The translations under genes were made by a program, and so were the position numbers. Below, in pieces: positions 1,312-36,512 of a stretch of 64,000 nt of DNA. The stretch's first letter is position 1. Every line of letters begins with the position of its first letter. The stretch is from Chloroflexota bacterium (lineage in GTDB: Bacteria > Chloroflexota > Anaerolineae > UBA1429), in the NCBI GenBank assembly GCA_012719135.1, contig JAAYAW010000035.1, positions 3,799-67,798 of the forward strand, given 5' to 3'. The notes under the pieces are model-generated. The model did no database searches. It was not told where the DNA came from and saw nothing but the letters and a program-made list of their open reading frames with translations.

Positions 1312-2715
1312 CTAGCGGCTGACGCGGGCTGCCTCCTCGGTGGGATCGTGGTTGATGCCCACGAAGAGGATGGCTCCGGTGCTATCGTCCTGAAGGACAT
1401 AGAGGAAGGGCCGGTCCGCGAGAAAGGAGAAAGGCTCCTCTGGTGCCGCCGCCTGTGCGCGCAACTCAATCGAGGTGACCGCGGCCGCCTCCGTGCCCTG
1501 CTCGTTCACCTCCACGAAGGACTTGTGGAGGACACCATCGATCCAAGTGGGCTGGTCCATCTCGTGAATCCGGGAAAAGTCGGCTTCGCCTGGGATAAAG
1601 GCACGCTCCATCCCCATTGCCGCCAGCGCGTCATTCAGGCGCGCCTCGAACGACAGCGTGAATCGCGGCAGCGAGACGGTGCCGTCCTTGCGGGTGAGCG
1701 CGCCGACAAGCGCCTGCCACCCACTGGCATCCAGATCATCGAGCCAGGCATCCAGGCTCGTGCCATCCGCGGGTAGCACCGCGATCATACTGAGGCGCCC
1801 CCCGCTGTACGGCAGGCGGACGGCCTGGTAGTCGCCGGAGCGGGCGTATTCCCAGGATCCATAGCGGCTCATCATCAAGGCCTGCACTTGGGCGCCGTCG
1901 GCGCGGGTGAAGGCTTCTTCCGACGTAAGAGACTCATCGAAGGGGGTTTCCCAATCACCCTTAAAGTACACCGCGTTCATGATAAACAGGATCGCGAGAG
2001 GGTCGATGGGTGGGGTAACGATCTCTGTGATGCGCCCGCGGGTTTGGTCGGCAACCCAGCCGTTCATCACGTCAGCCGCCTCGGAGGAGCTGAAGTCCAG
2101 CCCGGACACCCGGGCACCAAAGTACCGCGCCACCGTATCGAGAAAAGTCGTGCGAAAGGGCAGCCCCTGGCGGAGCCAGAGTGCGTTGGCGATATCCAGC
2201 TCAACGCCCAGATCGTCACCGTCGAGCGCCTGGCCAAGGCCGGCGAAGGCCTGGTTGGCAGCCTTCTCGTCCCACCCCTGGAGATGCAGGGCGGCGCGGA
2301 TCCCCTCCTGGGTTTCCCCGCTCGCGCCGTTCGCGGCCATTCCCAGAGCCAACGCGACGCTCACCGGCGAGATGAAGAGGTTCGTTCCTGGCTCCGAGGC
2401 GGCACGGAGCCGTTTCAGCAAGTCCAGCCCCATGGCATTGGCGGAAACGATCTGATCGGGGTTCACAGGATGGTCCTCCAGTTCGCGAGTTTCAGCGTCC
2501 GGGCGGGCGCTGGCCTCAACAGCAGGAGTGCCGGTAGCCGTCTCTCGTGAGGGATCGGCCGCCGCACCCGTTGCAGCCGGGCTTGAGCGGGCGGTGTCGG
2601 TGCTCGATGGTGTGGTCTGGGCCGGCTCTGGCTGGGCATCCGCAGGCGTTTGGCAAGCGTTGACCACAATGGCGAGGGCCAGCAGAAACATGAGTAGTCG
2701 ACTACGGCGTGCCAT
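1312..2715 (-). CDS. Serpin (serine protease inhibitor) with N-terminal signal/lipoprotein-like peptide
   Basis: 467 aa. Canonical serpin motifs are present: FISPVSVALALGMAANGA, NAVYFKGDWETPF, the reactive-centre-loop hinge GTEAAAVTS, and C-terminal FLADRPFLYVLQ. N-terminus is MARRSRLLMFLLALAIVVNAC (signal peptide with Cys). Confidence 0.85.
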   Translation of the reverse strand: MARRSRLLMFLLALAIVVNACQTPADAQPEPAQTTPSSTDTARSSPAATGAAADPSRETATGTPAVEASARPDAETRELEDHPVNPDQIVSANAMGLDLLKRLRAASEPGTNLFISPVSVALALGMAANGASGETQEGIRAALHLQGWDEKAANQAFAGLGQALDGDDLGVELDIANALWLRQGLPFRTTFLDTVARYFGARVSGLDFSSSEAADVMNGWVADQTRGRITEIVTPPIDPLAILFIMNAVYFKGDWETPFDESLTSEEAFTRADGAQVQALMMSRYGSWEYARSGDYQAVRLPYSGGRLSMIAVLPADGTSLDAWLDDLDASGWQALVGALTRKDGTVSLPRFTLSFEARLNDALAAMGMERAFIPGEADFSRIHEMDQPTWIDGVLHKSFVEVNEQGTEAAAVTSIELRAQAAAPEEPFSFLADRPFLYVLQDDSTGAILFVGINHDPTEEAARVSR

Positions 2716-11879: not shown

Positions 11880-12089
11880 AACCAGAGTATCATGGCGCCC
11901 GAGGCCCCTGTCAAACAGGCCAGGCGGGTGAGGGTGGCGGGGTATCCTACGAACGTCGGATATGTTCTGGCCCAAAAACGTTGCGCAGCCGTATGGAATA
12001 TGGTAAATATACAGACACGGTAGAGTGGTCTATCGGCATTGGCCGGGGCCGCCCCGGGCAGAGTGGCACCAAATGCGAGGAGGCATAGG

Positions 12090-12683
12090 ATGAAGTGGTC
12101 TTCAAGGCTGGCATTGGGGCTGGTGGTCACAGCACTGTTGCTGGCGGCCGGAGGATGTGCAGAAAAGGGCCCGGAAGCGGCGCTGACGCCGGGACAAAGG
12201 CTCTCTGCCATGGAGGCCTGGGCGATTATCGAGCCGGCGGCCATGGCGTGGAAGGCGGGATCTGTGATATCCGAGTGCCGCCTGCCCAACCGGCCCGGCA
12301 AGGAGGATCTGGGTGTGGACGGGCTTTCTTCGGCCTGGCGCTTTATTGTGGCGCCGGAGGGTGACGGCAACCAAGCCTATTACAGCCTGGATACGACGGA
12401 AAAGCCCATCAAGGCCAATCGTTCAGATCAGATTCGGCCGGCGGCCAAGGCCAACCTCACTCCCGGGGATTGGAAGGTCGACAGCCCTGAGGCCATGGAG
12501 ATCGCTCTCGCCAACGGCCTGCAGTCCTTTATAGACGAGCATCCCAGCTTCCAGGTCAAGACCATGACCTTTGAGATCGACGTAGACGTCGAACTGGGCG
12601 CCTACTGGCTTGTAGTCGCCAAGGACGGATCAGATACGCTGGAGATTCGGATCAGCGTCGTGGATGGCTCGCTCGTCGAATAG
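12090..12683 (+). CDS. Hypothetical lipoprotein
   Basis: AGGAGG RBS then ATG at 12090. Signal peptide with lipobox LLAAGGC. No recognisable catalytic motifs. Confidence 0.55.
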   Translation: MKWSSRLALGLVVTALLLAAGGCAEKGPEAALTPGQRLSAMEAWAIIEPAAMAWKAGSVISECRLPNRPGKEDLGVDGLSSAWRFIVAPEGDGNQAYYSLDTTEKPIKANRSDQIRPAAKANLTPGDWKVDSPEAMEIALANGLQSFIDEHPSFQVKTMTFEIDVDVELGAYWLVVAKDGSDTLEIRISVVDGSLVE

Positions 12684-12721
12684 TCTGCTGCACTTCCCCG
12701 CATGACCCGACGCTGTGCGGC

Positions 12722-15700
12722 CTAACGCCAGCCGCACAGCGTCTCAATCTGCTCTGCAGAACCATCGCGGAACCAGCCGTCCAACTGGTCACGCTCCTTG
12801 AGTTGCTGACCTCGGTTCGTGCTGACGGCCAGGTAGATACCCTGCCACTCGGGCAGGGCCGTCATATCCCCCCAAAGCTTTTCGTACTGTGCAACCGGGT
12901 ACACGTCCTCCTGACCGTTGCCCCAACGGCGCTTGACGTCCTTCAGCGTAACGTAGGTGGGCATCCGGCGCGCCATCTCGCGCGTCGCCGTCTCGACCGC
13001 CTCCGCATCCCTGAGCGTGGCGCGATCCAGGCCGAACAACTCGAGGAGACGATCGACCTGCAGCCAGAAGGTGTTTGAGTTGTAGTAGGTCAGGTCGAAC
13101 TCTTGCTCCTCACGCGGGATGGCGAGCCCCTCCACCAGCCTGAGGCGACCGTCCACTCGTGCCAGGCCTCCCCCGCGGTCCTGAATGCGGTGCGGGACGA
13201 CCTCTACCGCAAAAGGAACCTGGTGCTCGATCATCATACCGAGCAGCGTTGGGTCGAGAGAGGCGCCCAGCGTGTCGATGTTATGCACCAGCAGGTACTG
13301 CAGCCCGGGCTGAGCCTCAAGCAGCCGTGCCAAAACTCCGCTCCGGAAGAGGTTGGGGATCTCGTACCAGTGCCCGATTGGGCTCAGACACTGGAGGGCG
13401 AGGTTGTCGCGATAGTCGCGACCCTCGCCCATGCCTTCCGCCCAGGCGATCAGTGCGGCATTCAGGCTTTCACGCACCTTTTGGGCCTGCTCATCCAGCA
13501 GCTGCTGAGAGAGCTCCTCCCAGGCAAAGCGAAGGTCCCGCACCATCGGCACCAGGCGCAAACCAATGGCGCGACCCTGGCTGAGATACAGGGGGCCGCG
13601 GTACCCATAGTTGCCGCAACGGCCGAGGTATTCGGCGATCGGGCCGTGGGTGAGGTAGCTCGTCGTGATGACGTGAGCCAGCGGCGCCCCGGCCAACTCG
13701 GCCGTGCGCGCGCTCTTGGCCAGATGCACTTCCAGAAAGGTCCGCTGCGCGCCTCCCAGCCGGGCGAAGGGATTTATGGCCTTGACGACGCCGGCGCCCT
13801 GCGTCCAGCGGCTGCCGACGCCGCCGGCCAGGGTCACCACGGCCGCGGCGCCCCGAGCCAGCGCCTCCAGGCCCACACGCTCCAGATGTGCATTCCCCTC
13901 CGGCGCCCTGTGAACGTCCCCGGGAGCAACATCGCGGATCTCACTGGTCGCGGGGAGGCGATTCTGCGCCAGGCCGATGATGCCTGCGCGCAACTCCCGG
14001 CGAATCTGCTCGTGCTGCTGGCGATCAAAGCCGTTCTCGTCGAGAAGGCGATCCAGATCCTGCTGGCCCTCGCGCGGGGCCTCGGATTGCGGCAGGAGCG
14101 CGTCCAGCAACAGGCCCATCGCGGGGAGCATCTCGGGGCGCGTGCGCACGGCCCGCGAGAAGAGGTCCAGCTCGGCCCGCTGGCTCTCGGAGAGGTCGTG
14201 CCGGCTCTGCTTCAAAAGCCTGGGAACCGCCAGGCTGTAGTAGGAGCCGGGGAGTAGCGCCGCTTCGCCCTGCAGCAGCCTCGCCGCGCTTCCCACCTCG
14301 TTGATGGAAAAGTCATACACCACGGGATCCATGGCAAAGGGCAAGGCGTGCTCAAGGCGTCGCTTTTCCTCGTGCATCATCTCGAGCAAGTAGCCTTGGG
14401 CCGCGTCTCGCGCCTCGGGGGCCACCATAAAGCCCATGCCTCCCCCTGACATTCCCCCCAGCATCCAGAAGCCCCAGAACGCCTCCCCCAGATCCGTGCG
14501 GGCTCGTTCGATGAGCGACTCCACATACAGGTTGCTCGCCCACGGGACGATCGTCTGCAGGGGCCCGGTAAAGTTGTGCGTGGTCGCCTGCGCCAGTTCA
14601 GGCACCGATCCCGAGCGAAGGAGCTCCAGGACGTGATCGAGAATCGCGCCCGCCTCCTTTCTCGCCGACCATTCCTGAGGCGAGCGGAGGAGATAGCGCT
14701 CGGTGACCATCTCCAGGATGGGACCGACGTTCTGGGCCATCCCTCCATGCACCAACACCAGGCTATCCTGAAGCGCCTGGCGCATCTGGGGACGCACCTT
14801 GTCCGGCCCGAGGATCACGTGCTCCGGCAGCAGGCGGCCGCGGCTGACGCCGTATTCGGGGTCGCCATCCTGCGCCTGCACGCCGTGAATCAGCTTGATG
14901 CCGGGCCACACGCCTCCGGAATCCTGCCATCCGCCGCCGGACCCGGCCAGCCACTCGCCCAGTACGGCCCGGGCGGCTACCTGGCGCCGCTCGTCCTCAC
15001 GGAGAGGTCCCTCCAGCGTGGACACCTGACCGGTGCCTCGCATGAGCGCAGCGATCAAGGCGGCCAGGAGCGTTGTGGACACGGCGAGCCGGGAGCCCTT
15101 GGGAATACCCCGCACCTCGCTCACGAGCTCTATGCCCATGCCGGGGCCCACCACCCGAGCGAGGAGATCTGAAAGCGGATGGCCCGCGCCCTCCAGGCCG
15201 GGGGGAACGATGCCGGCGGCGATCACGGCGGCTTTGAGAAGCCCCAGATAGTCACGGGCGAAATCAAAGACCTCGCCAACGGTGCGGATCTCCGCTTGCG
15301 CGCCGAGGTCGAGGCTGGCCAGGCGCAACAACGGCTTGTCGATAACGCGTACGTACGCCGAGACGGGAGGCTGCGGCGCCGGGTCGCGACCGCGCACCGC
15401 CAGATCGACGGACACATTGATGACGCGGGCTCCCTCGGGATAGTCCATACCCAGGAAAAAGATGTCGCTCCAGCCACTGTGCGTCAGGTCCATGCGCACG
15501 GGCGTGAACTCGGCCACCACAGGGAAGAGGCCGGTCGCCGGATCTCGCCGGAGCAGCAGCGGATGCACCCGCAGAGGGTGATCGGCCGGGTGGCCCATGC
15601 GGAACATCCAGCGGTTTCCGGCGAACGAGCGTACGCTGCGGCGCACCTGATCCGCCAGAGTCTGGAAAGCGAGCAGGTGGTACGCCTGAGCCAAGCCGCT

Positions 15701-16045
15701 GGCCAGGGCCTCGGAGGGTCCTTCCCTGCGCGAGGCCGCCAAAAAGGCATCGATAGCCTCTTCAAAACGGCGTTCCAGGAGATGCGCGTAGCCCCCGTAG
15801 GGTATTCGCCCGGCGGGGGCAGCGGCCAGCCGGCGAGGCAGGTGAAAGCGATAGATGGCATACAGGAAGGCCGTGGCGCGCACGCGCTCAAAGAGATTTG
15901 TGCTGGAGCGCCTAAAGCTATCGAGCACGGCGCACTCCGCCTGGAGCTCTGCCAGGGAGAGCGGGACGCACAGGTCTCGGAGCGACCGATCGCGCACGGC
16001 TGGATCGGGTGACAGGATGGTATCAAGCAGCGCGGAACTAGGCAT
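12722..16045 (-). CDS. Fused sugar-1-kinase (GHMP family) / UDP-sugar pyrophosphorylase (UDPGP/USP-like), ~1107 aa
   Basis: GHMP motif II-like ([22 protein letters not shown]) and motif III-like ([16 protein letters not shown]) in the N-terminal 60%. The C-terminal domain carries the nucleotidyltransferase signature [23 protein letters not shown]. The start at the internal Met (ATG 16043-16045) overlaps the upstream gene stop (16038-16040) by 8 nt. Confidence 0.6.
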
Positions 16046-16895
16046 CGGCACTCTGGTCTGCCTCGCGCGCCGCGAGAAGCTCCAGCAGTTGGGCCAGCAC
16101 CACCTCACGATCCTGGCCGGCAAGGGCGAGGGCGATTTGCGCGGTGAGCAGGCCGTAACGGGCCCCCACATCGTAGCGTCGCCCAACGCTCTCCAGCGCG
16201 AGGTAGCGTTCGTGGCGGGACAACTCGTCCAGGGCGTCCGAAAGGGTCACGCCCTCCTGTTGGGCCTCCAGCCGGTCGCCCAGGATGGCCATGACAAGAG
16301 GCGTCAGCACGTGCATACCAAAGAAGCAGAGATAGTGTCCGGCGCGCAGGCCCGGAACCACCAGGAACTGCTCGGCCTCCGTGGGGGTGGGCTTTTCCAT
16401 GACTCGATCCACCAGGTAGAGGCGGCTGCTGCCCGCCACCCGCTTGCCACCCACACAGCCAAAGTACGGCAGCAGGCTCTCCCGTGAGGCCTGCACGGCG
16501 GAGACGGCGCAATCGTTGCGTTCCGCCATGCGCACGAGGTCCTCGGCGCAGCCGAGCTCGCCCCTGGTGATGGGGAGGTGGTCGCTCACCAGGTGGAGAA
16601 AGGGCTCGTCCCCGGCATACTCGTGGGCGCAGTAGATCGCGTGCCCGTAGCCCAACGGCTCGCTCTGTTCCACGAAGGTGATCCGGCTGAGATAGTCGCC
16701 AACCACCTCGCGATAGGCGACCTCATCCCCGGGGCTGACGACGACACAGACCTGTTCGATCCCGGCACGGAGCGCCTCCTCCACCAGGATCGCCAGAACG
16801 GCCTTCTCCCGGCCGTCCGTATCGATCAGCATCTGCAGTGGAAGCGTGCGCTGCCTGCGCCCGGCCGCGGTGATGATGGCTTTGGTGACGCGCAT
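16038..16895 (-). CDS. Sugar-1-phosphate nucleotidyltransferase (GalU/UTP-glucose-1-phosphate uridylyltransferase-like)
   Basis: 285 aa. N-terminal [17 protein letters not shown] (G-x-G-x-R nucleotidyltransferase loop). Mid-region [16 protein letters not shown] fits the GalU/RmlA fold. Confidence 0.7.
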
Positions 16896-16994
16896 GGGCT
16901 CGTCCCTCCGTGTGATCTCTGCTCTGATTTCCTGATTCTAGCGAGAGACCGCCAGCCGGACAAGCGGGACCCCGAGCCGGTTGTATGGCTGGGC

Positions 16995-18590
16995 TCAGGC
17001 GACCAGGAGGCTCGCGCGCGCGACCCAGGATAGCGTGGCGTCCAGATCGCGCCTCAGCCGGATGGCGGGATCCGCTTCGCCACTCTCGCTGCCATCGGTG
17101 TACCGCAGCGCACCGCTGTTGAGCAGCGCATCCAGCTGGGCGGCGATGTCATCACGGGTGTGGCTGCCATCCAGCTGCGGCAGCACGTAACGCGCCAGCG
17201 GGTCCAGGTGCACGCGCTCGTGTCGCAGGTTGGGGACCCGGTCGCTGGAGCGGGCCAGATAGCGGGCATAGGCGCTGGCTCGGGGATGCTCGCTGACGGC
17301 GGAGACGACCGGTGGGGCCCAGGCATGCAACTCGACGAGCGAGACGCTGTAAGAGAAGGCCTTGAGGAGGTTCGCCGCCAGCCGGCGGACGTCCGCGGGT
17401 TCGAGGGATGATGTGCCCTGCCGGCTGGCCGCCTCGTCGACCAGCCGGCCGAAGGGAATGGCGCTGGGCGCGATCGCGGCGAGATGATCGAGAGCTGCGA
17501 TGGTGACCGCGTCATCGGTCTGGAACAGGGCGCCATCGGGGCTGGCGAATCGAGCGATCCCGTCATCGGGAGCCTGGGGCGGCACCCGTTGGGCGCGCGT
17601 GGCGACGGCCATGCTCTGGACGCGGCTGCTGCGGAGCGTGCGATCCAGGGTCGCGTCGCTATGGCATAGCAGCGTGCGCCGAAACGCCCGGTTCCGCACA
17701 AAGTCCATGTACTGCTCCGTATCGACAATCGTCTCGCACACCTCCTGCAGGGAGCCAAAGGTCTCGGCGGAGAGATTGTCCGGCATGGACATGGGAAAGT
17801 CGGCCTCTACCAGGAACTGAAGCCCGTGCTGTCCGGCGTGCTCGGCGAACTGCCAGAAGTAGACGGGATCGTTCCATTCAGCCAGCTCATCGTGCAGGAT
17901 CACCGAGTCGATCTGTGGCCGGGCGTCCTCGGCCTGCTTATCCAGGAGTTCGCGGTAGGACTCCATAAAGGTGCCATAGGCCTGGTTGCGCTCGTCGTGC
18001 ACCGCGCGCGCAAGCAGGGCAACCAGTTCGCGCCCCAACTCGGCCCGGCGGTGGGGATCCCGTTCGGCGCGCATATGGTAGAGCATCATCTCTCGGAGGC
18101 CGCTGAGCATGTGCCAGCCCGGGTAGGTGTTGTAGCTGATATATGCGACGCCTGCAGTGGCCAGGTTCGCTGAGCAGACCCTTAGGAGCGCGTCGCGGAC
18201 TACCGGGGGCACCCAGGAGTAGACGCCATGGGCGATGATATAGTCAAAGGTGCCCAGCGCGGGGGTGATCTCGCAAAGGTCCATGGCGAGAAAGGCGATG
18301 TTGGAAAGGCGCAACGATGTGACGGCCTGTGAGGCCTCTTGAATCTGGTGAGCAGAGAGGTCCACGCCCACAAAGGTGCTGCCTGGCAGGGCTTCGGCCA
18401 TGGGCAGAAGGTTACCGCCTGATGCACACCCCAGCTCCAGCACGCGGCAGTGCTCCACGTCGGGTACGGGGAGCCCCAGCAGGCTCGCGCAGGTGGCCAG
18501 CCTGTCCGGATGGGTCTGCGTGTAGCAGAGGACGGGATAGGGTATCTCGTCGTAATCGGTGGGCAGGGCCAGTTCGTCGCGTACAGCCAC
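16995..18590 (-). CDS. Class I SAM-dependent methyltransferase with C-terminal methyltransferase-regulatory-like domain
   Basis: SAM-binding motif I VLELGCASGGNLLPMAE and a DL/acidic motif II. A ~300-aa C-terminal extension is present. The start is reassigned to GTG at 18590 (AGGAGA 6 nt upstream). Confidence 0.7.
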   Translation of the reverse strand: MAVRDELALPTDYDEIPYPVLCYTQTHPDRLATCASLLGLPVPDVEHCRVLELGCASGGNLLPMAEALPGSTFVGVDLSAHQIQEASQAVTSLRLSNIAFLAMDLCEITPALGTFDYIIAHGVYSWVPPVVRDALLRVCSANLATAGVAYISYNTYPGWHMLSGLREMMLYHMRAERDPHRRAELGRELVALLARAVHDERNQAYGTFMESYRELLDKQAEDARPQIDSVILHDELAEWNDPVYFWQFAEHAGQHGLQFLVEADFPMSMPDNLSAETFGSLQEVCETIVDTEQYMDFVRNRAFRRTLLCHSDATLDRTLRSSRVQSMAVATRAQRVPPQAPDDGIARFASPDGALFQTDDAVTIAALDHLAAIAPSAIPFGRLVDEAASRQGTSSLEPADVRRLAANLLKAFSYSVSLVELHAWAPPVVSAVSEHPRASAYARYLARSSDRVPNLRHERVHLDPLARYVLPQLDGSHTRDDIAAQLDALLNSGALRYTDGSESGEADPAIRLRRDLDATLSWVARASLLVA

Positions 18591-18720
18591 AGCACGTCTC
18601 CTACCGAGTTGAGATGGGCGCATTATAGGGCGCAGGAGGCAGGCCCGCCAGCGATAGAGGGCCTTGCCTGGCGGAGGCTCTGTGGTATCCTGCGCATACC
18701 CTGTGAATAGGAGAGCGTGA

Positions 18721-19422
18721 ATGGAGAGAGAAGAGAACCGCTGGATGCCGCCGTCGCCTCACCGCGAGGCGATCGAAGCGGACCTCCGAGCCGGACGGGC
18801 GCGCATCGTGGAGCGCGGCCACAACGTGCCGCCACTCCTCGTCTTTGAGGATGGGGGGGTGATCGAGCTCCCGCGGGTCAGGTTGGCAGAGACGCGCCGG
18901 GGGCTGCAACTGGTCGCTGCTGATGAGCCCGCCACCGGCGGCGAGACGCGCTTTGGCGATGTGTGCGGGACGGTTGACGAGATCCTCGGCACGCTGCGCG
19001 AAGTCGCGCCAGGCGCCGAACTGGATCCCGATGACCTGAATGCGCTCATCGAGGACATTGGCTATATGCTCGCCCGAATGACGAGGCGCAGCCAGCAGTA
19101 CCTGGCGTTTTTCGAGGGCGTGCAGTCCATCGCGGCGACGCTGCTCTCGCTGGAGCGCCCCAATGTCGCTTCGGCACAGGAGCGCCTGGACGCGTTGCGC
19201 AGGGCCCTCTGGGATCCGGGCGAACGGAACGCGGCGCGGCTGGAGGATATCGCCGGTCGGGCCGAGCACGCGCGCGCCCTGGCCCAGAGCCTGGAGGATT
19301 ACCTGGCGCAGTGCAAACTGGCCGCCACGCGTGTGGGCACCCTCTATGGGGAGGTCCGCGGCGGGCGTGCCTGGGCCCTGGCCCCGGATCAGGGCACGCC
19401 AGAGCCGGGATCCAGCGGCTGA
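18721..19422 (+). CDS. Hypothetical protein
   Basis: 233-aa ORF with good GC3. No recognisable motifs. It sits in the divergent intergenic slot opposite the methyltransferase. Confidence 0.45.
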   Translation: MEREENRWMPPSPHREAIEADLRAGRARIVERGHNVPPLLVFEDGGVIELPRVRLAETRRGLQLVAADEPATGGETRFGDVCGTVDEILGTLREVAPGAELDPDDLNALIEDIGYMLARMTRRSQQYLAFFEGVQSIAATLLSLERPNVASAQERLDALRRALWDPGERNAARLEDIAGRAEHARALAQSLEDYLAQCKLAATRVGTLYGEVRGGRAWALAPDQGTPEPGSSG

Positions 19423-19441
19423 AGGCTTCAGCAGCCCGGGT

Positions 19442-20536
19442 TCACCCGGCGCCGACGCCCGTGATCTGGGACAGACGCTCAAAGAAGGCTCGCTTGAAGG
19501 GCGTGTTGATGCCCCAGTTCACCGGGGGCGTCTGATAGCCACTGAGGGCGGCCCAGGGCGCATCGTCGCGATAGCGTGGCCGCGGGACATAGTCTTCCCA
19601 TGGATCGGCGCCCTGGCCGTGCCAGCCTTGATCGTAATACCCCCAGGAGACGCCGTGCGTCCAGGCGACCTCCAGGTTGGGCAGAGCCGGGGAGTCCTCG
19701 TTGATGATGATCGGCTTTGGTGCAAGGAAGTACGAGGGCATGCTCTGCACCGCCTCCAGCGCCGCGGCGAGTTGTAGAGGGCGCAGCCCGTTGCCGTGCA
19801 GCAAGACGTAATCCGCCGTACGGACGAGCGAGGGGGGCGGCATCCCGCGGCCCGTGTCTACCTCCGCACCGCCGCCGCTGGTAGAAAACAGCAGACTGGG
19901 GAACTCGGCCTTGAGGGCGCTGAGCATCTCGTGCTGACGCTCGGGGCGAAAGATCGCATAGGGCGTCTGGTCGACGACGACGTCGATCTCATTGGCCAGC
20001 TCGACGAGCACGTTTCTATGGCCGCAGGAAGCCAGGAAGGTGCAGGCCTCCCGGGCCGCGCGCCAGATGGCGTCCGCGTTTGCCATGCGCAGCAGCATCG
20101 TCCAGTAGAAGAAGCCGACGATGGTGACCATGCCCAGGGCGTCGGTGCGCCGGATGACTCGTGCCAGCCGGTCGGCGTAGGCCGGCTTGAGTTCGCCTTC
20201 CGGCGTAAAGCCGTTATTGTCATAATGACGGTTGATCTCGGGGACATAGAGCGGCCCACCGCCCTGCAGGTTGACCGTCACGGCGAGGACTCCATGGTCC
20301 CGCCAGTGGGCGAGGGCGGCACAGAACTCGGCCGTGTTGCGATCCGGATCCCAGGCTCCCGTGTCCGGATAGGCCCAGTTGGCGCTCGTCTGGGGAACCG
20401 CATCGTCAAAGATCGCCTGAACCGCTCGCACGTTGAACAGTAACCCCTCTACCGGGTGCCCGTCGTAGACTCTACCGGCATAAGTCCGCTTGCCATCCAG
20501 ACACACGTATTGGCCGTCAAATGAGACTGTAGTCAT
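19442..20536 (-). CDS. Clan GH-A TIM-barrel glycoside hydrolase (GH5-like), cytoplasmic
   Basis: 364 aa with no signal peptide. Candidate acid/base NE motif in LVELANEID and candidate nucleophile in PIIINEDSP, with spacing typical of a (beta/alpha)8 GH-A enzyme. Confidence 0.45.
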   Translation of the reverse strand: MTTVSFDGQYVCLDGKRTYAGRVYDGHPVEGLLFNVRAVQAIFDDAVPQTSANWAYPDTGAWDPDRNTAEFCAALAHWRDHGVLAVTVNLQGGGPLYVPEINRHYDNNGFTPEGELKPAYADRLARVIRRTDALGMVTIVGFFYWTMLLRMANADAIWRAAREACTFLASCGHRNVLVELANEIDVVVDQTPYAIFRPERQHEMLSALKAEFPSLLFSTSGGGAEVDTGRGMPPPSLVRTADYVLLHGNGLRPLQLAAALEAVQSMPSYFLAPKPIIINEDSPALPNLEVAWTHGVSWGYYDQGWHGQGADPWEDYVPRPRYRDDAPWAALSGYQTPPVNWGINTPFKRAFFERLSQITGVGAG

Positions 20537-20759
20537 ACCGATTCTCCTTCGGTTGCTCTGCCCTCAGCCAACGGATAGTACCGCATGGAAACGGATCCGT
20601 CATCCCTGTGCGCAGGGGCCAGGGGCCGAGCCCTCGCAAGCGGTAGCGTTGCGCCGGCCTTGAGACGATGCCGGCGAGGGGTATTGTTCCCCCGGCGCGC
20701 CCGTGCTATGATTGCGCGAATGAGCTGTGATCGCAACAGGCATCAGTAGAGGAGAACGG

Positions 20760-22097
20760 ATGAGTGACCTGAACGAGGCCGGATGGGCCGAGCGTCTGCG
20801 GCAGCGCATCGAGGATCGCAGCGCGAATGTGTGCGTCATGGGTCTGGGATATGTGGGGCTTCCTCTGGCCGTACTGTTGGGGCAAGCCGGTTTCCACGTG
20901 ACCGGGATCGACCCGGATCGAGAACGCTGTGCGGCGCTCTTGCGCGGTGAGAGCTATGTGGGAGATGTGCCCGCTGATGCCATCGCCGCGCTGACGGCGA
21001 GCGGGCATATGGACGCCTCTGCCGATCCGGAGCCCCTGGCCCGGGCCGATGCCGTCATCATCTGCGTACCGACGCCGCTGAGCAAGTCCAAGGATCCGGA
21101 CATCTCGTACATCGTGGGGGCCGTAGAGAACCTCGCCCGCCACCGGCATCCAGGGATGCTCGTGGTGCTGGAGAGCACCACGTACCCCGGGACCACCGAA
21201 GAGATCCTCATGCCCCGGTTGGCGAACGACGGGTTCGCCATCGGCGAGGACATCTTTGTGGCCTACTCGCCGGAGCGCGTCGATCCCGGAAACCGCAACT
21301 ATAGCATCCGGAACACGCCCAAGGTGATCGGCGGGGCGACGCCCGCCTGCCTGAGTCTGGCGGTGGCCCTCTACGGGAGCATCGTGGAGCAGACGGTGCC
21401 CGTCTCCAGCCCTGCGGCGGCCGAGATGGTCAAGATCCTGGAGAATACCTACCGGGCCGTCAACATCGGCCTGGCCAACGAGATGGCCCAGATCTGCCAG
21501 CGCATCGGTCTGGACGTGTGGGAGGTGATCGCTGCCGCCAGCACCAAGCCCTTTGGTTTCAGTCCCTTTTACCCGGGGCCGGGCCTCGGCGGGCACTGCA
21601 TCCCCATCGATCCGCTCTACCTCACCTGGAAGATGCGGAGTCTGAGCGTGCAGACACGCTTCATCGAGCTGGCCGATGTGGTGAACACCGACATGCCAGC
21701 CTATGTAGTGCGGCGCGTTCAGGATGCTCTGAACGATATCGAGCGGCCTCTCCGCGGGAGCCGTGTGCTCGTTCTCGGCGTCGCCTACAAGCCCGATGTG
21801 GCGGATCTGCGGGAAAGCCCGGCACTGACGATCATCGAGCTCTTGCAGGATCGGGGCGCGCAGGTTCTGTACCATGACCCCTTTGTGCACCAACTCGACC
21901 TGCCCGGCGGAGAGAGGCTGGCCGGGATCGAACTCGCCGAGGAGGACCTGGCGCTCGCGGATTGCGTCCTCGTGCACACCGCACACAGCAGTTACGATTG
22001 GGGTTGGGTGGCACGGAACGCACGCCTCGTCTTTGACACGCGCGGCGTGATCCAACCAGGAGAGGTTGCCAATGGCGCCCTCTACTACCGGCTCTAG
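20760..22097 (+). CDS. Nucleotide-sugar dehydrogenase, UDP-N-acetyl-D-glucosamine/mannosamine 6-dehydrogenase family (WecC/TviB-like)
   Basis: Rossmann motif [16 protein letters not shown], catalytic Cys region ([17 protein letters not shown]), and a UDP-binding C-terminal domain. The start was moved to ATG 20760 (AGAGGAGA RBS). Confidence 0.85.
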
Positions 22098-22845
22098 GTC
22101 CGGCGACCCACGGGCCGAGCGCATCAGCGGCGGTCCGGGGCTCTACATTCGGCGGCAGTCGGGCGGCGTGGGATGGTACGCGCTCGAACAGCTGCTCCAG
22201 AGCCTGGCGGGGTGGATTCCAAGCATCCTCGGGATCGCCGTCCGTGCCGTTCTGTACCGGCTGATGCTGCGCATGGACGGCTGGGCGGCCATCGAGCGCG
22301 GTGTGCGGCTGCGCTATGCGCGCCTGATCCGGCTGGGGGCGGGCAGCTATCTGGATGAGGGTGTGTACGTTCACGCGTGTCCGGGCGGAGTGTCCATTGG
22401 GGCGCGAACGCTGGTGATGCATGGGGCCGTGCTGCATGTGTACAACTTTCGTCAGCTACCGCATGCGGGCATCCATATCGGCCAAGATAGCCTCGTGGGA
22501 GAGTACAGCGTTATCCGGGGGCAGGGCGGCGTCACGCTGGGAGATCGCGTGTACACCTCTCCCCTGGTTCAGATCGTCGCCGTGAACCATGTCTATGATG
22601 ATCCCAGCCGCTCGTTCACGGACCAAGGGTTGACCGCCGAGGGGATCATAATCGAAGACGATGTATGGATCGGGTCAGGTGCGGTGATCACCGATGGGGT
22701 GCGGATCGGCCGCGGCGCGGTAGTCGCCGCCGGCGCAGTGGTGACGAGCGATGTGCCCGCGCACACCGTGGTCGGTGGCGTGCCCGCCCGCGTCCTGCAC
22801 GAGATCGATGGCACGCCCCGTACCGCCGGGAGATCGATCTACTAG
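22072..22845 (+). CDS. Hexapeptide-repeat (left-handed beta-helix) sugar O/N-acetyltransferase
   Basis: Repeating [LIV]-G-x-x-x-x hexapeptides ([52 protein letters not shown]). The ATG at 22072 lies 6 nt after AGGAGAGG and overlaps the dehydrogenase 3' end. Confidence 0.75.
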
Positions 22846-22896
22846 CCCCGCGGGTCACCGCCCGAGGCGTCCGCAACACAGGCAAGGCTGGCATCC

Positions 22897-24144
22897 ATGA
22901 ACACAGCGCAGGAGCGGGATAGCTTACAGGAGCCAAGAACCGCAAGTATGCTTTCGGTGGTGATCCCGGCATACAACGAAGAGCAGGGCCTCGCGGCGAT
23001 CATCGAGCGGGTTCTGGCGGTGCGGCCGGCCCTGGCGCTGGATGGCATCGGGCTGGAACTCCTGGTCGTCGACGACGGCTCGCGGGACGGCACGGCGGAG
23101 ATCGCGAGGCGGTACGCCGACGTGCGCCTCGTCCAGCACAGCACGAACCGCGGGTACGGCGCGGCGCTCAAGACGGGGTTTGCGGCGGCCTGTGGCGAAT
23201 GGCTGGGGTTTATGGACGCGGACGGCACATACCCGCCGGAGGAGCTTCCCGCGTTGTGCGCCGTCCTGTGCACGGGCGACGGAGCGGACCTGGTGGTCGG
23301 CTCGCGACGCTCGGGGCAGAGCAGCGAGATGCCCTTTCTGCGTCGGGTGGGCAACCGGCTATGGAGCGGCCTCGTGTCTACGCTCGGAGGCCGGAGGGTG
23401 CTGGATCCTGCCAGCGGGATGCGCGTGTTCCGCCGGGAGATACTCGCCAGGCTGTATCCGCTGCCCGATGGCCTGAACCTGACGCCGGTGATGAGCACCC
23501 GTGCAATCCACGAGGGGATCCGTCTCGCAGAGATCCCCATTCCCTATCGGGAGCGCCAGGGGCGGTCCAAGCTCAGCGTCGTCAACGATGGGATGCGTTT
23601 CCTTGGTACGATTGTGTGGACGGTTCTCACGTACAACCCGGCGCGGCCACTGGGCTTGCTGGGCGTGGGCCTTTTCTCCCTGGGTGTGCTGGCGGCTCTG
23701 GGGTTGGTCATCGCGCGGTTGGCCGGCATCACGTCCCTGGGGCCTATGGGCGTCCTTGTGGCCTATCTGGCGGCGCTGCTGCCCGTGGTGGGCTTTGACC
23801 TATTTGCACTTGGCGCAACCTTCAACTATGCCGTGTCTCTCTTTCACGCCCGCCCGGTACGGCAGGGGCTCTTTGGCCGGCCCATCTTTGATCCTCCGCT
23901 GGACCGGCATTTCTGGTGGATGGGCCTGCTGGCCGGTGGGGCCGGGATCGCCCTGGGGGCCGCGAGCCTCGTGCTGGGCCTCAACGGCTGGGGCGTTGAG
24001 CGCCTCTGGTTGTACCTTCTCGGTGCCGCGGCCTTGACTATGCTCGGCCTGAACCTGCTCGTGTTCTGGTTGATCATGCGGGTGCTGGAGGAGTTGAGCC
24101 ACCGGCAGGCGGACATCCAGGCCGATCTGGCTTGTGTGCCATGA
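22897..24144 (+). CDS. GT2 family polyprenyl-phosphate glycosyltransferase (GtrB/DPM1/ArnC-like) with C-terminal TM helices
   Basis: SVVIPAYNEE, VVDDGSRDGT and DADGTY (DxD) motifs. Four C-terminal hydrophobic segments, as in GtrB-type Und-P sugar synthases. Confidence 0.8.
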   Translation: MNTAQERDSLQEPRTASMLSVVIPAYNEEQGLAAIIERVLAVRPALALDGIGLELLVVDDGSRDGTAEIARRYADVRLVQHSTNRGYGAALKTGFAAACGEWLGFMDADGTYPPEELPALCAVLCTGDGADLVVGSRRSGQSSEMPFLRRVGNRLWSGLVSTLGGRRVLDPASGMRVFRREILARLYPLPDGLNLTPVMSTRAIHEGIRLAEIPIPYRERQGRSKLSVVNDGMRFLGTIVWTVLTYNPARPLGLLGVGLFSLGVLAALGLVIARLAGITSLGPMGVLVAYLAALLPVVGFDLFALGATFNYAVSLFHARPVRQGLFGRPIFDPPLDRHFWWMGLLAGGAGIALGAASLVLGLNGWGVERLWLYLLGAAALTMLGLNLLVFWLIMRVLEELSHRQADIQADLACVP

Positions 24145-25802
24145 GCGATACCGGCGTTGAGCGGCCTCGAGGGCGGACGGTGCCTCAGCGCGTATTCGCG
24201 GAGACGCCTCCGAACGCGGACGGGCTTGGCATCGCCACAGGCGCCGGCGCGGGGGAGCGCGTGGACATTCTGTTCGTGAACCCGCCCGCGCCCGACCGCG
24301 GGATCTGGATTCGGAGCCAGCACCGCGTCGGGAGGCGGTCACGCGAGGGAATGATCTGGCCGCAGGCCGATCTGGCGCAACTGGCAGCGCTGTTCCCCGA
24401 CAAGCGCGTGGCGATCATCGACGCGATTCCATCGCGCATGACGTGGGCGGCCTTTGCGGAGGAACTCAAGCGCCTGCAGCCCACGTTCTACCTCACCCAG
24501 GTGACGGCGCCGACGCTGGAGAACGACATGTACGGCGCGTTTCTCGCGCGGTCGGGTGGTGCGACCACGATCGCCATGGGGACACACGTCACACCCATGC
24601 CGCTATCCACGCTGGAGGCGTATCCGGCTCTGGACTATTGCCTGGTGGGAGAGCCCGAGCTGACGCTGCGCGAGTTGGTGGATGCCCTCTGCCCTGATGA
24701 AGCGGATCATCTCCGGGCCGTCGCGCCGGATACCGGTGCGGCCCTCGAAGGCCTTCTCGTCGCGTCGGACGCGGGGTGGAGGCCCGTTACGCAGCGCGGA
24801 ACGTCCACCGAGGAGCGCCTGGCGACGATACCCGGACTGGCGTGGCGCCGGAACGGCCAACCTGCTCTGAACGCTCCCCGCGCGCTCATAGAGGACCTGG
24901 ACGCGCTGCCCCTGCCACGGCACGATCTGCTGCCGCTGGCGCGCTACCGGGCGCCGCTCGTATCCGGCGCCTACTCCTTTGTGGTTACCAGCCGCGGATG
25001 CCCCGGCGATTGCCGGTTCTGCATCAAGCACGTCTCATACGGGCGCTCGGTGCGGTTCCGCTCGCCAGAGAATGTGCTGCGGGAGATCGAGATGCTGGCG
25101 GGACTGGGAATCCGCAGCATCCACATGTACGCCGATCTGTTTACCGTGAATCGTGATCACGTGCTGGGCATATGCCAGGGCCTGCTGGACCGCGGACTCA
25201 AGATCCGCTGGACGTGCAACAGCCGGGTCGACTTTGTCGATCCAGAGATGCTCGATCTCATGAAGCGCAGTGGCTGCTGGATGATCTCCTGGGGGATCGA
25301 ATCCGGGGACGTGGAGATGCTCCGGCGGATGCACAAGGGCATCACCCTGGAAGGGGTCCGCCAGGCGCTCGAGTGGTCCCGAAGGGCTCACATCCGCAAC
25401 TGGGGCTACTTTATCATCGGGCTCCCCGGGGAGAGTGAGCGTTCCATACGCCACACAATCGATTTCGCCAAGACTCTGCCCCTGGACCTGGCTCTCTTTC
25501 ACATCGCGGCCCCTCACCCGGGAACACCCTTTTTCTACGAGGTCGTGGACCAGGGATGGTTTCGGCCGGGGACCCGATGGGAACGCGTCGATATGGACCG
25601 CTCCACGGTGCTCGATTATCCGGAGCTGAGCGCCGAGGATCTGGAGGCGTGGGCACGGCGCGCGCTGCGCGAGTGGGCCCTGCGGCCGGGGCCGGTCTGC
25701 ACCTACGGTAGGATGCTGGCCACCAGTCCCTCGCTCTGGAGGGCTGCCTTGGCGATCGGGCTGGAGAGCCTCGGCTGGCTCCGTGGGGCGGGCAGCCGGT
25801 GA
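24141..25802 (+). CDS. B12-binding domain-containing radical SAM protein
   Basis: N-terminal cobalamin-binding Rossmann-like region (DILFVNPP..., VAIID...). Radical SAM CxxxCxxC (SRGCPGDCRFC) followed by an ELP3/TIM-barrel region. Its ATG overlaps the GT2 stop (ATGA). Confidence 0.85.
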   Translation: MSDTGVERPRGRTVPQRVFAETPPNADGLGIATGAGAGERVDILFVNPPAPDRGIWIRSQHRVGRRSREGMIWPQADLAQLAALFPDKRVAIIDAIPSRMTWAAFAEELKRLQPTFYLTQVTAPTLENDMYGAFLARSGGATTIAMGTHVTPMPLSTLEAYPALDYCLVGEPELTLRELVDALCPDEADHLRAVAPDTGAALEGLLVASDAGWRPVTQRGTSTEERLATIPGLAWRRNGQPALNAPRALIEDLDALPLPRHDLLPLARYRAPLVSGAYSFVVTSRGCPGDCRFCIKHVSYGRSVRFRSPENVLREIEMLAGLGIRSIHMYADLFTVNRDHVLGICQGLLDRGLKIRWTCNSRVDFVDPEMLDLMKRSGCWMISWGIESGDVEMLRRMHKGITLEGVRQALEWSRRAHIRNWGYFIIGLPGESERSIRHTIDFAKTLPLDLALFHIAAPHPGTPFFYEVVDQGWFRPGTRWERVDMDRSTVLDYPELSAEDLEAWARRALREWALRPGPVCTYGRMLATSPSLWRAALAIGLESLGWLRGAGSR

Positions 25803-27766
25803 TGCCCACGAGGCGCCTCTCCTGGCGGGATGCCTGGCCAACCCTGCAGGTGGGCTTGGCCCTGGTGGCATGCGGCCTGTGGTATGCCACGGGAGGGGCC
25901 GTCTGGTACCGGGTAACTTCCGTCGGCCTCTGGCCGGCTCTCCTGGTGGTGGCGATGTGGCCGCTGCAGCGTCTGGCCCGAGGCCGTTGGGAACGTCTCC
26001 AGGGCGTGCATCTCTGGTTGGGCATCTTTCTGCTCACCGCTGTCGTGAGCACGGTTGTGGCCTACAACAGGCCGGTCGCCGTAGCCAAGTTGGGGACGGT
26101 CATCGGCGCTGCAGGCCTGGCCCTGGCGCTATCGCATCAGCGGACACGGCGGCAGATCTATCTCTCGCTGGCCCCGCTGGGCCTGGGCCTTGCGGCGCTT
26201 GCGCTCTACTCCCTCGCCGGCAGCGACTGGGATGCTCAGGCTCTCAAGTACCCCGCGCTGGCCGAGGCAGGCCGATCCCTCACAGGATGGATCGCCTGGA
26301 CTCCGGGGCACCGAATCACGCCGAACGTGGCTGGCAGTATGCTGGCAGCGCTGTTGCCCTACGGCGTTGCGCTGGCGGGGCTCGCGCCGTCGCGCTGGCT
26401 GGGCATGCGCCAGCCGGGACCCCAAGCGGCCATCCGAGGCTGTTGGGCCCTTGCGGTGGCGCTCGGCGTATCGGCACTGATCCTCACGGGCTCTCGAGGC
26501 GCCTGGGGCGGTAGCCTGGCGATGGTCGCGGGCTGGGCGTTGTGGCGTTGGCTGGGCCGCCTTGCGCCGCCTGGGCCGGCAGGCTACCGGCGGCGGCTGA
26601 TCGGATTCGGTCTCATGGCCCTGGCGGGCGGCCTCGCTGTGGTCCTGGGAGGCTACCTGGTTCTCGTGCTGACGCTGCCGGGGGCCGCCGCGTTGGCGAA
26701 CCGGATCGATCTGATCACCCGCAGTCTATCCCTGGCGCAGGACTATGCGTATACCGGCGTGGGCCTTGGCCAGTTCCCCATTCCGTATTCGGTGTATACC
26801 CTGCTGATCCATGTGGGGTACATCGTAAACCCCCACAACACGCTTGTGGGGATCCTGGTGGAGCAGGGAGTGCTGGGGATGGCGGCGCTGATCCTCCTCT
26901 GGGTGAGCGCGCTCAGAGCCTTTGTTCGCACCCGCGCGCACGCCAGCCCGGGGCTGGGCATAGTGTTGGAGGCCAGTGTGGCCTCGCTCATGACGATGGT
27001 CGTTCATGGGATGGTGGATTCGGGACTGTACGGCAGCCGGGGGCTTCTGATCATGCTGGTGCCCGTGGGTGTGATCATCGCCTGTGCGCGGCACGTCGAG
27101 TCTGAGACCGCGGCCGCCGAGGGTGAGCGCAGCCCCGAGGCCTCGCGCACGCGAGACCGGACGGCTGTGCCGATCCTGGCGGGGTTGGCTGTCATCCTCC
27201 TGGTGCTCGTGGCCACCGCAGGCCGGCCGCACACAGCCTGGCTCGCCAATCGCGGCGCTCTCGAACAGACACGCCAGGAACTCGCCTTGTACGATCCCGA
27301 GCGATTCGCCGAGCTCTCTTTGGATGACGCGCGCCTGCGCGCAGATCTGGCGGAGGCCGAGCGCTTGCTGGCCGCGGCCGCGCGCCATCCCGGCCACCCC
27401 AGCGCTCCCCGGCGCCTCGCCGCCATCTATCTCTCCAGGAGCCAGTACCCGGACGCACTCGCCGTGCTGAAGGCCTCCTGGGATGCGGGCAGTCGGGATT
27501 CGACGACGCGGCTGTTGTACGGGGATGCGCTCATTGCGGCCGGCGATCCGGCCGGCGCCGCAGCGACCGTGAAGGGTATACGCTGGGCCGCCGAGCGGAT
27601 CGAGGGGCAGGCCTCGTCACGCTACGTGCCGAGGGGAGAGTGGGCTCAGGTCGCTTACGCCTATGAGGCGGTGGCTCGCCTGAACGGCACTGGAGAGGCG
27701 GATCTCGGGCGGATCAATGAGGCACGGCAGCGGGCGGGGCTTGCGCCGCTGGAAGCATTACCATAG
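25799..27766 (+). CDS. O-antigen ligase (Wzy_C) domain membrane protein with C-terminal TPR-like soluble domain
   Basis: About 12 TM segments. Wzy_C signature LTGSRGAWGGSLAMVAGW and a periplasmic loop. A C-terminal ~200-aa Ala/Leu-rich helical repeat region is TPR-like. Its start overlaps the rSAM stop. Confidence 0.7.
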   Translation: MMPTRRLSWRDAWPTLQVGLALVACGLWYATGGAVWYRVTSVGLWPALLVVAMWPLQRLARGRWERLQGVHLWLGIFLLTAVVSTVVAYNRPVAVAKLGTVIGAAGLALALSHQRTRRQIYLSLAPLGLGLAALALYSLAGSDWDAQALKYPALAEAGRSLTGWIAWTPGHRITPNVAGSMLAALLPYGVALAGLAPSRWLGMRQPGPQAAIRGCWALAVALGVSALILTGSRGAWGGSLAMVAGWALWRWLGRLAPPGPAGYRRRLIGFGLMALAGGLAVVLGGYLVLVLTLPGAAALANRIDLITRSLSLAQDYAYTGVGLGQFPIPYSVYTLLIHVGYIVNPHNTLVGILVEQGVLGMAALILLWVSALRAFVRTRAHASPGLGIVLEASVASLMTMVVHGMVDSGLYGSRGLLIMLVPVGVIIACARHVESETAAAEGERSPEASRTRDRTAVPILAGLAVILLVLVATAGRPHTAWLANRGALEQTRQELALYDPERFAELSLDDARLRADLAEAERLLAAAARHPGHPSAPRRLAAIYLSRSQYPDALAVLKASWDAGSRDSTTRLLYGDALIAAGDPAGAAATVKGIRWAAERIEGQASSRYVPRGEWAQVAYAYEAVARLNGTGEADLGRINEARQRAGLAPLEALP

Positions 27767-31611: not shown

Positions 31612-31685
31612 CTGCCGCGCCGAGGTAAAAAAAGGACGAGCGAAGCGAGGGGGGTTGCTCCGCCCGTCCCGTGTCTCCCGCCTGG

Positions 31686-34724: not shown

Positions 34725-34859
34725 GATCCAGGTCCCCCCACTTGCCCGCCCCTCGCGGGCTGCCTGCCTCGCAGGCAGAGCACGGTTCGCGCACCAGTAG
34801 CCAAATTCATGGTGCCTTTTGGTCTCGCTCTGCCCACATGATAGCGCGTGGGGTACCTG

Positions 34860-35010
34860 GTTGGCAACATTTATGCCGTGTTTACGTAAGTGGATATCTG
34901 ATTACATCATCTCAGTATGTGTAAATCATACATAAGCTGGCGCATATTCGTTTCTCGCGTTATCAGCAAGTGCACATCGTTATACTATAGTATATATTGT
35001 TCTCAGCGGG
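34860..35010. promoter_or_regulatory. AT-rich (~35% GC) intergenic island containing perfect 14-bp palindrome TATACTATAGTATA (34981-34994); probable promoter/operator region of C25 peptidase gene
   Basis: Sharp local GC drop in a 67%-GC genome. Contains TTACGTAA and the 14-bp perfect palindrome. Located 135-285 nt upstream of the peptidase start codon (34724). Confidence 0.35.
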
Positions 35011-35146
35011 CATTGAACGAGGCCTGACGACCGGCCCAGGGTAGAGCGGAGACGTCTGCGTAAAGACGCCAAAGAGGGATCAGGGTGTTCTCACAAGCTT
35101 TTTACGTATCGGGGGCGTATCGCGGGGATAAGGGAAGGGTAAACAG

Positions 35147-36506: not shown

Positions 36507-36512
36507 ACCCAC

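Follow-up and report, generated by a model that had tools for sequence, protein, structure and literature searches.

The window analysed here is a 64,000-nt stretch of a contig from a Chloroflexota bacterium (assembly GCA_012719135.1, contig JAAYAW010000035.1, positions 3,799 to 67,798), and all coordinates below refer to it. Its minus strand carries three open reading frames (ORFs) in succession over 12722..18623. Two of them, encoding a small GalU-like nucleotidyltransferase and a large protein in which a sugar kinase is joined to a pyrophosphorylase, form the cassette that is our subject; the third encodes a methyltransferase.

16995..18623, minus strand: methyltransferase ORF, 542 aa from the first ATG, 531 aa from a start at 18590
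16935..16963, minus strand: promoter-like site TTGTCC-17-TAGAAT, in the 99-nt gap 5' of gene 1; weak evidence
16038..16895, minus strand: gene 1, GalU-like nucleotidyltransferase, 285 aa
12722..16045, minus strand: gene 2, fusion protein, 1107 aa from the ATG at 16045

The longest form of the fusion ORF, 12722..16186 on the minus strand, would begin at a TTG and encode 1154 aa; the ATG at 16045 agrees with the N-termini of aligned homologues. The TAG stop of gene 1 and the ATG of gene 2 both lie within ATGCCTAG, confirming the 8-nt overlap described in an earlier note on this DNA. Because the coding regions overlap, the two genes are probably translationally coupled, and they probably constitute a self-contained two-gene operon. 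The same note placed a 531-aa methyltransferase gene 100 nt upstream. That length holds for the start at 18590, but the gap between the methyltransferase ORF and gene 1 is 99 nt and the first ATG gives 542 aa. The promoter-like site in the gap is weak evidence, since one sigma-70-like site was found in 12000..19500 against 0.6 expected. No Rfam family matched in the 10-21 kb region.

Four segments can be recognized in the 1107-aa protein, two of them from the secondary structure of an AlphaFold2 (AF2) model.

15536..16045, minus strand: helical N-terminal domain, aa 1-170 (AF2 secondary structure)
14261..15520, minus strand: fucokinase-type GHMP kinase domain, aa 176-595
13946..14260, minus strand: helical linker, aa 596-700 (AF2 secondary structure, confidence partly low)
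12725..13945, minus strand: UDPGP-family pyrophosphorylase domain (eukaryote-type, UGP/UAP-like), aa 701-1107

The model, calculated with 58 homologues as input (pLDDT 78, pTM 0.78), is all-helical over aa 1-148 with a conserved segment reaching to about aa 170. It then adopts a GHMP-like alpha/beta structure at aa 176-595 with the two-domain fold of that superfamily, and continues through a helical linker (aa 600-690) into a Rossmann-type domain that extends to the C-terminus. The N-terminal 650 aa, which the earlier note took for kinase, do contain one at aa 176-595, but aa 1-170 are helical and not part of it. The three protein motifs cited in that note were all located, at aa 313-334, 530-541 and 739-760. 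Pfam recognizes UDPGP (PF01704) alone, at aa 888-1004 (E = 4e-16, 59 bits against a cut-off of 22). With a score above the gathering threshold and a UGP/UAP fold, the C-terminal domain is placed among the UDPGP nucleotidyltransferases, as the note required. Pfam GHMP_kinases_N gave no match to the protein at E < 0.01. The NCBIfam model for FKP (PRK13412) aligns with aa 178-549 at E = 2e-23, covering the kinase part alone (profile positions 611-942); as a whole-protein model it scores 82.3 bits against a cut-off of 721, and the N-terminal GFPP beta-helix domain of FKP is missing. In PDB searches by single sequence and by family profile, the N-terminal half retrieved Bacteroides fragilis FKP alone (9iip, 5yys and 9iit), with the FKP kinase domain 9iip at E = 3e-13 in the sequence search. 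For the C-terminal part, the PDB profile search lists eukaryote-type UGPases first (8c0b, E = 9e-14) and UAPs more weakly (7e-06), and USP is not the closest relative of the UDPGP domain.

The helical domain has no Pfam or PDB match above noise; the PDB match to a haemagglutinin coiled coil, at E = 0.02, is noise. Directly N-terminal to the kinase, and still within the helical domain, lies the conserved segment RSVRSxxGNxWMFRxGHxxDxPL. An assembly or frameshift artefact as the origin of the fusion is ruled out by the uniform length of its homologues, as 119 of the 120 best database matches are 1105-1166 aa long (63-78% identity) and cover 99-100% of the query. Domain matches in both halves and intact catalytic residues confirm, at the level of sequence, that the 1107-aa protein is a predicted fucokinase-type kinase fused to a UDP-glucose-pyrophosphorylase-type enzyme, with the kinase N-terminal as the earlier note had proposed.

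The nearest known systems are Bacteroides FKP and plant FKGP, which also combine a GHMP anomeric kinase and a sugar-1-phosphate nucleotidyltransferase in one polypeptide. Unlike the window protein, they have the domains in the reverse order and a pyrophosphorylase of the GFPP beta-helix type instead of UDPGP, so that the note's claim of an opposite order and a different family is borne out. FKP also lacks the orphan N-terminal helical domain and has Gly in motif II where the window protein has Arg; it uses GTP, and the window fusion probably UTP. The cassette's gene order, small nucleotidyltransferase and then kinase, mirrors the domain order of FKP. The note had regarded FKP and FKGP as the only known fusions of this kind. 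Zebrafish GKUP (glucuronokinase/putative UDP-GlcA pyrophosphorylase) is another, joining a GHMP sugar-1-kinase and a UTP-dependent pyrophosphorylase for UDP-sugar salvage. It differs from the window protein in being eukaryotic, in having a glucuronokinase, and in the type of its pyrophosphorylase, a short bacterial NTP_transferase; this domain is N-terminal, as in FKP, so that the distinction in domain order stands (PMC3938481).

The FKP structure allows the kinase active site to be read residue by residue.

15074..15106, minus strand: GHMP motif II (phosphate-binding loop), aa 314-324, aligned to FKP loop 712-720 AGSGLGTSS
14921..14938, minus strand: GGGWQD, aa 370-375, with Gln374 and the predicted general base Asp375, equivalent to FKP Gln761 and Asp762

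In FKP, Asp762 is the general base, Arg592 and a metal stabilize the leaving group, Glu751 is essential, and Ser719 is a metal ligand in the glycine-rich loop 712-720; fucose is contacted by Trp599, Asp601, Thr602 and Gln761 (PMC11982464). In HMMER alignments, all of these catalytic and fucose-contacting residues have counterparts in the window protein. The catalytic pairs are R592/R184, S719/S323, E751/E364 and D762/D375, and the fucose contacts W599/W192, D601/D194 and Q761/Q374, with T602 replaced by Ile195. R184, W192, D194, I195, S323, E364, Q374 and D375 are invariant in 58 family members. With FKP-type matches at W192, D194, Q374 and D375, the predicted kinase pocket looks fucose-like. 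The glycine-rich loop of motif III is likewise invariant; the note would have been wrong had the catalytic residues around it been lost, and Asp, Arg and Glu all align to FKP. Motif II is different. It reads K316-G-S-R319-L-A-V-S-T against A-G-S-G-L-G-T-S-S in FKP, so that Gly715 becomes Arg319 and Gly717 becomes Ala, while the metal-coordinating Ser is kept (S719/S323). Nearly all distant relatives (31-56% identity) keep R184, D194, S318, S323, E364, Q374 and D375, and most of the residues matched to FKP are still unchanged at 32-39% identity. Their alignment separates into two subfamilies, the window type with R319, W192 and D186 and an Omnitrophota type with G319, A or G192 and E186. On this alignment Arg319 is a derived state that co-varies with a sugar-pocket residue.

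The UDPGP domain can be compared with Trypanosoma brucei UGP, whose active site comprises a nucleotide-binding (NB) loop KLNGGLGTxMGx4K, Gly191-His192, Lys256 and Gly258 of the sugar-binding (SB) loop, Glu281, Asn303 and the catalytic Lys377 (PMC3270307).

13781..13831, minus strand: nucleotide-binding loop, aa 739-755, two residues longer than the consensus KLNGGLGTxMGx4K

Counterparts are found for the NB loop, Gly-His (G891-H892), an NxDxLG motif (N922/D924), and the Glu and Asn contacts (E972 and N989); the C-terminal Lys is identified by eye. The SB-loop Lys is Arg957 in the window protein (R957-G-G), a position that varies among distant members. R746, K755, G891-H892, D924, E972, N989 and K1083 are kept in nearly all of the 31-56% identical relatives, and the pocket retains the contacts that UGP makes to OH-2 and OH-4 of glucose. 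Because key residues persist in such distant relatives, those of 32-39% identity included, the kinase and UDPGP domains both look like working enzymes.

Gene 1 encodes a protein that matches Pfam NTP_transferase and is closest to YngB/GalU in the PDB profile search (E = 5e-30); its AF2 model has a pLDDT of 93.5. It is not GalU itself by the NCBIfam model for that enzyme (galU, TIGR01099), scoring 89.8 bits against a cut-off of 326.8. With GalU, YngB and GalF it has the fold in common, and it keeps QxEPLGxGHA, the D of LVxDH (D105), EKP and RxDxG, as well as Q77. It differs from GalU and YngB in a conserved 11-residue insert and in the signature KAxITAAGxxQRxLPLQ, where GalU has AAGLGTRFLPATK.

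The altered loops in both proteins raise the possibility that one of them is a pseudoenzyme, with the kinase domain or the small nucleotidyltransferase merely binding a ligand and regulating a UDP-glucose pyrophosphorylase. GalF is thought to regulate GalU in such a way. Motif II with GSRLAVST instead of GSGLGxSS would fit, as would the absence from the small protein of the GxGTR...K signature, whose positions distinguish GalF from GalU, and database pipelines already name both cassette proteins "UTP--glucose-1-phosphate uridylyltransferase" or UGPase. However, the kinase's general base, Arg, Glu and metal-binding Ser are invariant over deep divergence, and a sister subfamily has the canonical Gly. 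The small enzyme retains EKP, D105 and RxDxG. Its deviant loop is itself invariant across the family, as is that of the kinase, which argues for a functional loop and not a decayed one. We therefore consider a purely regulatory role for either protein improbable.

Both proteins are widespread, the cassette occurring in at least nine bacterial phyla. For each protein the homologues in the database exceed 8000, those of the fusion being nearly full-length and 57-78% identical to it. Species-representative genomes, when scanned, yielded at least 563 loci, of which 80 were retrieved for comparison; their fusion proteins are 57-77% identical to that of the window. They come from Verrucomicrobiota (33 loci), Chloroflexota (23), Planctomycetota (7), Acidobacteriota (6), Rhodothermales, Ignavibacteria and Bacteroidota (5 together), Armatimonadota (2), Myxococcota-like bacteria (2) and Moduliflexus (1), with one locus unclassified. 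By tblastn, the small gene lies directly 5' of the fusion gene on the same strand in 74 of the 80 loci, across eight phylum-level groups, and the commonest arrangement of the two is a 4-nt overlap. Clustering of ORFs by BLAST over the 80 loci found no family besides the small gene in more than five loci. A 15-locus cluster that was considered as a further conserved neighbor was rejected, as its members are shadow ORFs on the strand opposite the small gene. In a Pfam census of the 115 flanking genes of these loci, no family occurs more than three times. No fucose permease was found near the cassette; the transporters there are generic MFS, ammonium or arsenite carriers. An ammonium transporter gene stands beside the cassette in three Phycisphaerae/Tepidisphaerales loci (L026, L033 and L066), which is probably lineage synteny and not a functional link.

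An exhaustive search reduced to representatives at 50% identity gave 574 proteins at E < 1e-30, among them several departures from the usual architecture. A 566-aa protein (P0185/P0272) consists of the helical domain and the kinase alone. At locus L082 (7086-10531, in a genome of 37% GC) a small nucleotidyltransferase is followed by a 566-aa kinase that lacks UDPGP and retains the helical domain, and then by a PHP-domain phosphoesterase. This small nucleotidyltransferase is an orthologue of the window's (38.5% identity, E = 8e-67). Two giants of 2318 aa (P0143, locus L086) and 2939 aa (P0157, locus L081) have the kinase-UDPGP module fused to ROK sugar-kinase domains; the former additionally carries an inositol-monophosphatase-family (IMPase) domain, and the latter is encoded on a bacterial contig, where a neighboring 7976-aa gene specifies HAD and Glycoamylase domains. 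In an Omnitrophota metagenome-assembled genome (L084, 42-9643), homologue P0135 and the end of the 1857-aa protein encoded upstream of it overlap; the latter has UDP-glucose/GDP-mannose dehydrogenase domains. No small nucleotidyltransferase lies nearby. Neither is the small nucleotidyltransferase fused into P0143, P0157 or P0135, and it is absent at distant loci L081 and L083-L086. It goes with the R319/W192 subfamily and not with the G319 subfamily. At L083, the distant homologue P0148 is flanked by genes for a B12 radical-SAM enzyme and a GT2. A 1292-aa homologue in the oxymonad Blattamonas nauphoetae (P0150, KAK2962578.1) suggests that the fusion gene was transferred into a eukaryote.

These variants raise the possibility of a sugar-bisphosphate route like that of HddA, GmhB and HddC, in which the kinase would act on a distally phosphorylated sugar, a phosphatase would follow, and a nucleotidyltransferase would activate the remaining sugar-1-phosphate. 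Fusions to ROK kinases and to an IMPase-type phosphatase (P0143 and P0157) and the PHP phosphoesterase after the L082 kinase would supply such steps, and the extra basic residues of motif II, K/R316 and R319, could accommodate another phosphate group. However, the ROK and IMPase fusions sit in the G319 subfamily, so Arg319 does not track with them, and most cassettes have no adjoining phosphatase. The window protein resembles fucokinase and has no HddA match in PDB or NCBIfam, and conserved Trp192 and Ile195 suggest that the pocket meets a hydrophobic C5/C6 edge instead of a phosphate. We regard this route, too, as improbable. Small anomeric-kinase systems of this sort, HddA/GmhB/HddC and AmgK/MurU/MupP, do resemble the kinase-only variant of L082 in pairing an anomeric kinase with a small nucleotidyltransferase and sometimes a phosphatase. 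They differ from the window cassette in substrates and protein families and in having neither a UDPGP domain nor a fusion; AmgK is not a GHMP kinase, and HddC uses GTP.

The most economical reading remains the one in the earlier note, that one polypeptide takes a free sugar through sugar-1-phosphate to UDP-sugar. The GHMP domain would phosphorylate the anomeric hydroxyl of a free monosaccharide at the expense of ATP. Asp375 would serve as general base, Arg184, Ser323 and Glu364 would handle the phosphates and metal, and Trp192, Asp194 and Gln374 would hold the sugar as in L-fucokinase. The sugar-1-phosphate would then pass to the fused UDPGP domain and react with UTP to give UDP-sugar and pyrophosphate. 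The small GalU-like protein would act as an obligate partner in one of two capacities, as a further uridylyltransferase with a different specificity or as a regulatory or structural subunit in the manner of GalF. The two nucleotidyltransferases may make two different activated sugars, as the note suggested. The comparisons show the folds, the conservation of catalytic and ligand-contacting residues, the pairing of the genes and the lack of any other conserved neighbor; that the domains act in sequence is inferred, and so is what is said here of the sugar and nucleotide and of the parts played by the small protein and the helical domain. There is precedent for fused kinase-pyrophosphorylases acting in sequence in FKP (PMC11982464) and zebrafish GKUP (PMC3938481).

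Several observations weigh against this reading. The kinase pocket is fucose-like (FKP makes beta-L-fucose-1-phosphate) and the UDPGP pocket is of the glucose type, so the two seem to point to different sugars and the domains may not share a substrate. Since the kinase-only variant is still paired with the small enzyme, that enzyme is the kinase's constant partner, which suggests that it, and not the UDPGP domain, is the primary one. Arg319 is invariant in the 58 family members at a position where GHMP kinases have Gly, and three residues of the GalU signature loop, its second Gly, its Thr and its Lys, are missing from the 285-aa protein. The equation of K1083, which lies in a VPRxRGQQLK-like stretch, with the catalytic Lys of UGP was made by eye, with no HMM alignment behind the match, and a C-terminal peptide search to confirm it found nothing. 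Our literature search found no paper on a helical-GHMP-UDPGP architecture. Owing to the pocket mismatch, the constancy of the small enzyme and the remodelling of both loops, we judge it an even matter whether the cassette adds a phosphate to C1 of a free sugar and yields the UDP-sugar through its own UDPGP domain.

The presence of two uridylyltransferase-like enzymes for one kinase could instead reflect a uridylyl exchange of the Isselbacher type. One pyrophosphorylase would convert sugar-1-phosphate to UDP-sugar and the other would run UDP-glucose plus pyrophosphate to glucose-1-phosphate plus UTP, so that the pair would do the job of GalT in the Leloir pathway and recycle UTP and pyrophosphate inside a complex. 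Uracil- or UGP-type residues occur in both proteins (in the small one, Q77 and EKP; in the UDPGP domain, glucose contacts resembling those of UGP), and the gene overlap is compatible with equimolar synthesis. Where the kinase-only variant has no UDPGP domain it has a PHP phosphoesterase, which could remove the pyrophosphate instead; the role of that protein is putative, however, and the idea is drawn from architecture alone. Very strong conservation and a context-free, housekeeping-like position would fit central sugar metabolism. On the other hand, the cassette has no linked epimerase (2 of the 115 flanking genes belong to the Epimerase family), the kinase pocket resembles that of fucokinase, and we know of no UDP-linked route for L-fucose-type sugars. 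It therefore seems unlikely, though somewhat less so than the bisphosphate route or a regulatory role, that the enzymes exchange uridylyl groups. We are similarly doubtful that the cassette is an unrecognized, widespread central sugar route, with an Arg-loop kinase and two coupled uridylyltransferases in one complex. If it were, Chloroflexota, the PVC and FCB groups, Acidobacteriota and others would have an entry route for a sugar that is Leloir-like but does without GalT, or else one that bypasses phosphoglucomutase.

One kinase with two nucleotidyltransferases could also serve cell-wall recycling in the manner of AmgK/MurU/MupP, a single anomeric kinase delivering GlcNAc-1-phosphate to the UDPGP domain and MurNAc-1-phosphate to the small enzyme. 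This would account for the composition of the cassette, its housekeeping-like distribution and the occasional phosphatase neighbor. However, the E-values given above place the UDPGP domain closer to UGPases than to UAPs and its Gly-His is of the UGP type, the small enzyme's matches are to GalU/YngB and not MurU, the fusion is carried by the eukaryote Blattamonas, and we found no literature support. Of the uridylyl-exchange, bisphosphate, pseudoenzyme and recycling explanations this is the least likely, and we think it very improbable.

The earlier note went further than a sugar-salvage enzyme, proposing that the cassette feeds the adjacent surface-glycan locus and that the methyltransferase belongs to the system, the sugar being possibly methylated. 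The methyltransferase (16995..18623) matches PF13649 (52 bits), PF10119 (MethyTransf_Reg, 72 bits) and PF21782 (63 bits), all above their cut-offs. It combines a class I SAM domain, MethyTransf_Reg and the C-terminal winged helix of PKMT, and is of the PKMT type. The PKMTs that give the type its name are rickettsial protein-lysine methyltransferases. A convincing homologue of the methyltransferase lies beside the cassette in its closest relative only (L001, 70% identity). The same holds for a convergent, lipoprotein-like ORF on the other side of the cassette, which recurs in L001 only (71% identity) and has no Pfam or NCBIfam match. Other features of the window are as follows.

12039..12683, plus strand: lipoprotein-like ORF (hydrophobic N-terminus plus Cys), 214 aa, convergent with the cassette
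20727-27766, plus strand: surface-glycan gene set, with UDP-glucose/GDP-mannose dehydrogenase family, hexapeptide acyltransferase, GT2, B12-binding radical-SAM, and Wzy_C with TPR
27805-43502: degradative proteins, a 1268-aa BNR/sialidase-like protein, a 1012-aa Peptidase_C25 (gingipain-type), GH2, and two GH127 beta-L-arabinofuranosidase-like proteins
1312-2715, minus strand: bacterial serpin, 467 aa
6406-9470, minus strand: four-carbon-acid-sugar-kinase-type protein (SBD_N/NBD_C), then histidine phosphatase, CobA/CobO adenosyltransferase and Fe-alcohol dehydrogenase

The UDP-sugar dehydrogenase, hexapeptide transferase, GT2, B12 radical-SAM and Wzy_C genes, together with a weak flippase match nearby, are what would be expected if the cassette supplied an unusual or methylated UDP-sugar to this particular locus. 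The comparative data contradict it. None of these glycan genes travels with the cassette in the loci compared, the methyltransferase is of the PKMT type, and the promoter-like site separates it from gene 1. We hold little belief in a supplier of this locus-specific kind, and the two claims of the note that depend on it are not supported. By these comparisons the cassette is strongly conserved, and independent of the methyltransferase and glycan genes that stand alongside it here.

Its chemistry and both protein families are already known. The plant and trypanosomatid sugar-1-kinases (GlcAK, GalAK, ARA1 and GalK) and USP perform the same two reactions with members of the same families; they do so as separate proteins, and the window kinase falls in the fucokinase/HddA clade, not the galactokinase clade. 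A recent paper on FKP phylogeny makes no mention of UDPGP fusions. What is apparently new, with no paper found, is the helical-GHMP-UDPGP architecture, its pairing with a non-canonical GalU paralogue, and the Arg-bearing motif II.

Thousands of genomes in poorly studied but environmentally dominant phyla (Chloroflexota, Verrucomicrobiota, Planctomycetota, Acidobacteriota and Armatimonadota) carry this pair. The two proteins are about 60% identical between phyla, and their generic database label is probably incomplete. If one polypeptide does take a free sugar to its UDP-sugar, the fusion could serve as a single-protein catalyst for that conversion in one pot; FKP is already prized as such a catalyst in GDP-fucose synthesis. 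Assigning the substrate would close a gap in metabolic reconstructions of the organisms that carry the cassette, and would also reveal the role of the Arg-bearing GHMP loop and of the non-canonical GalU signature.

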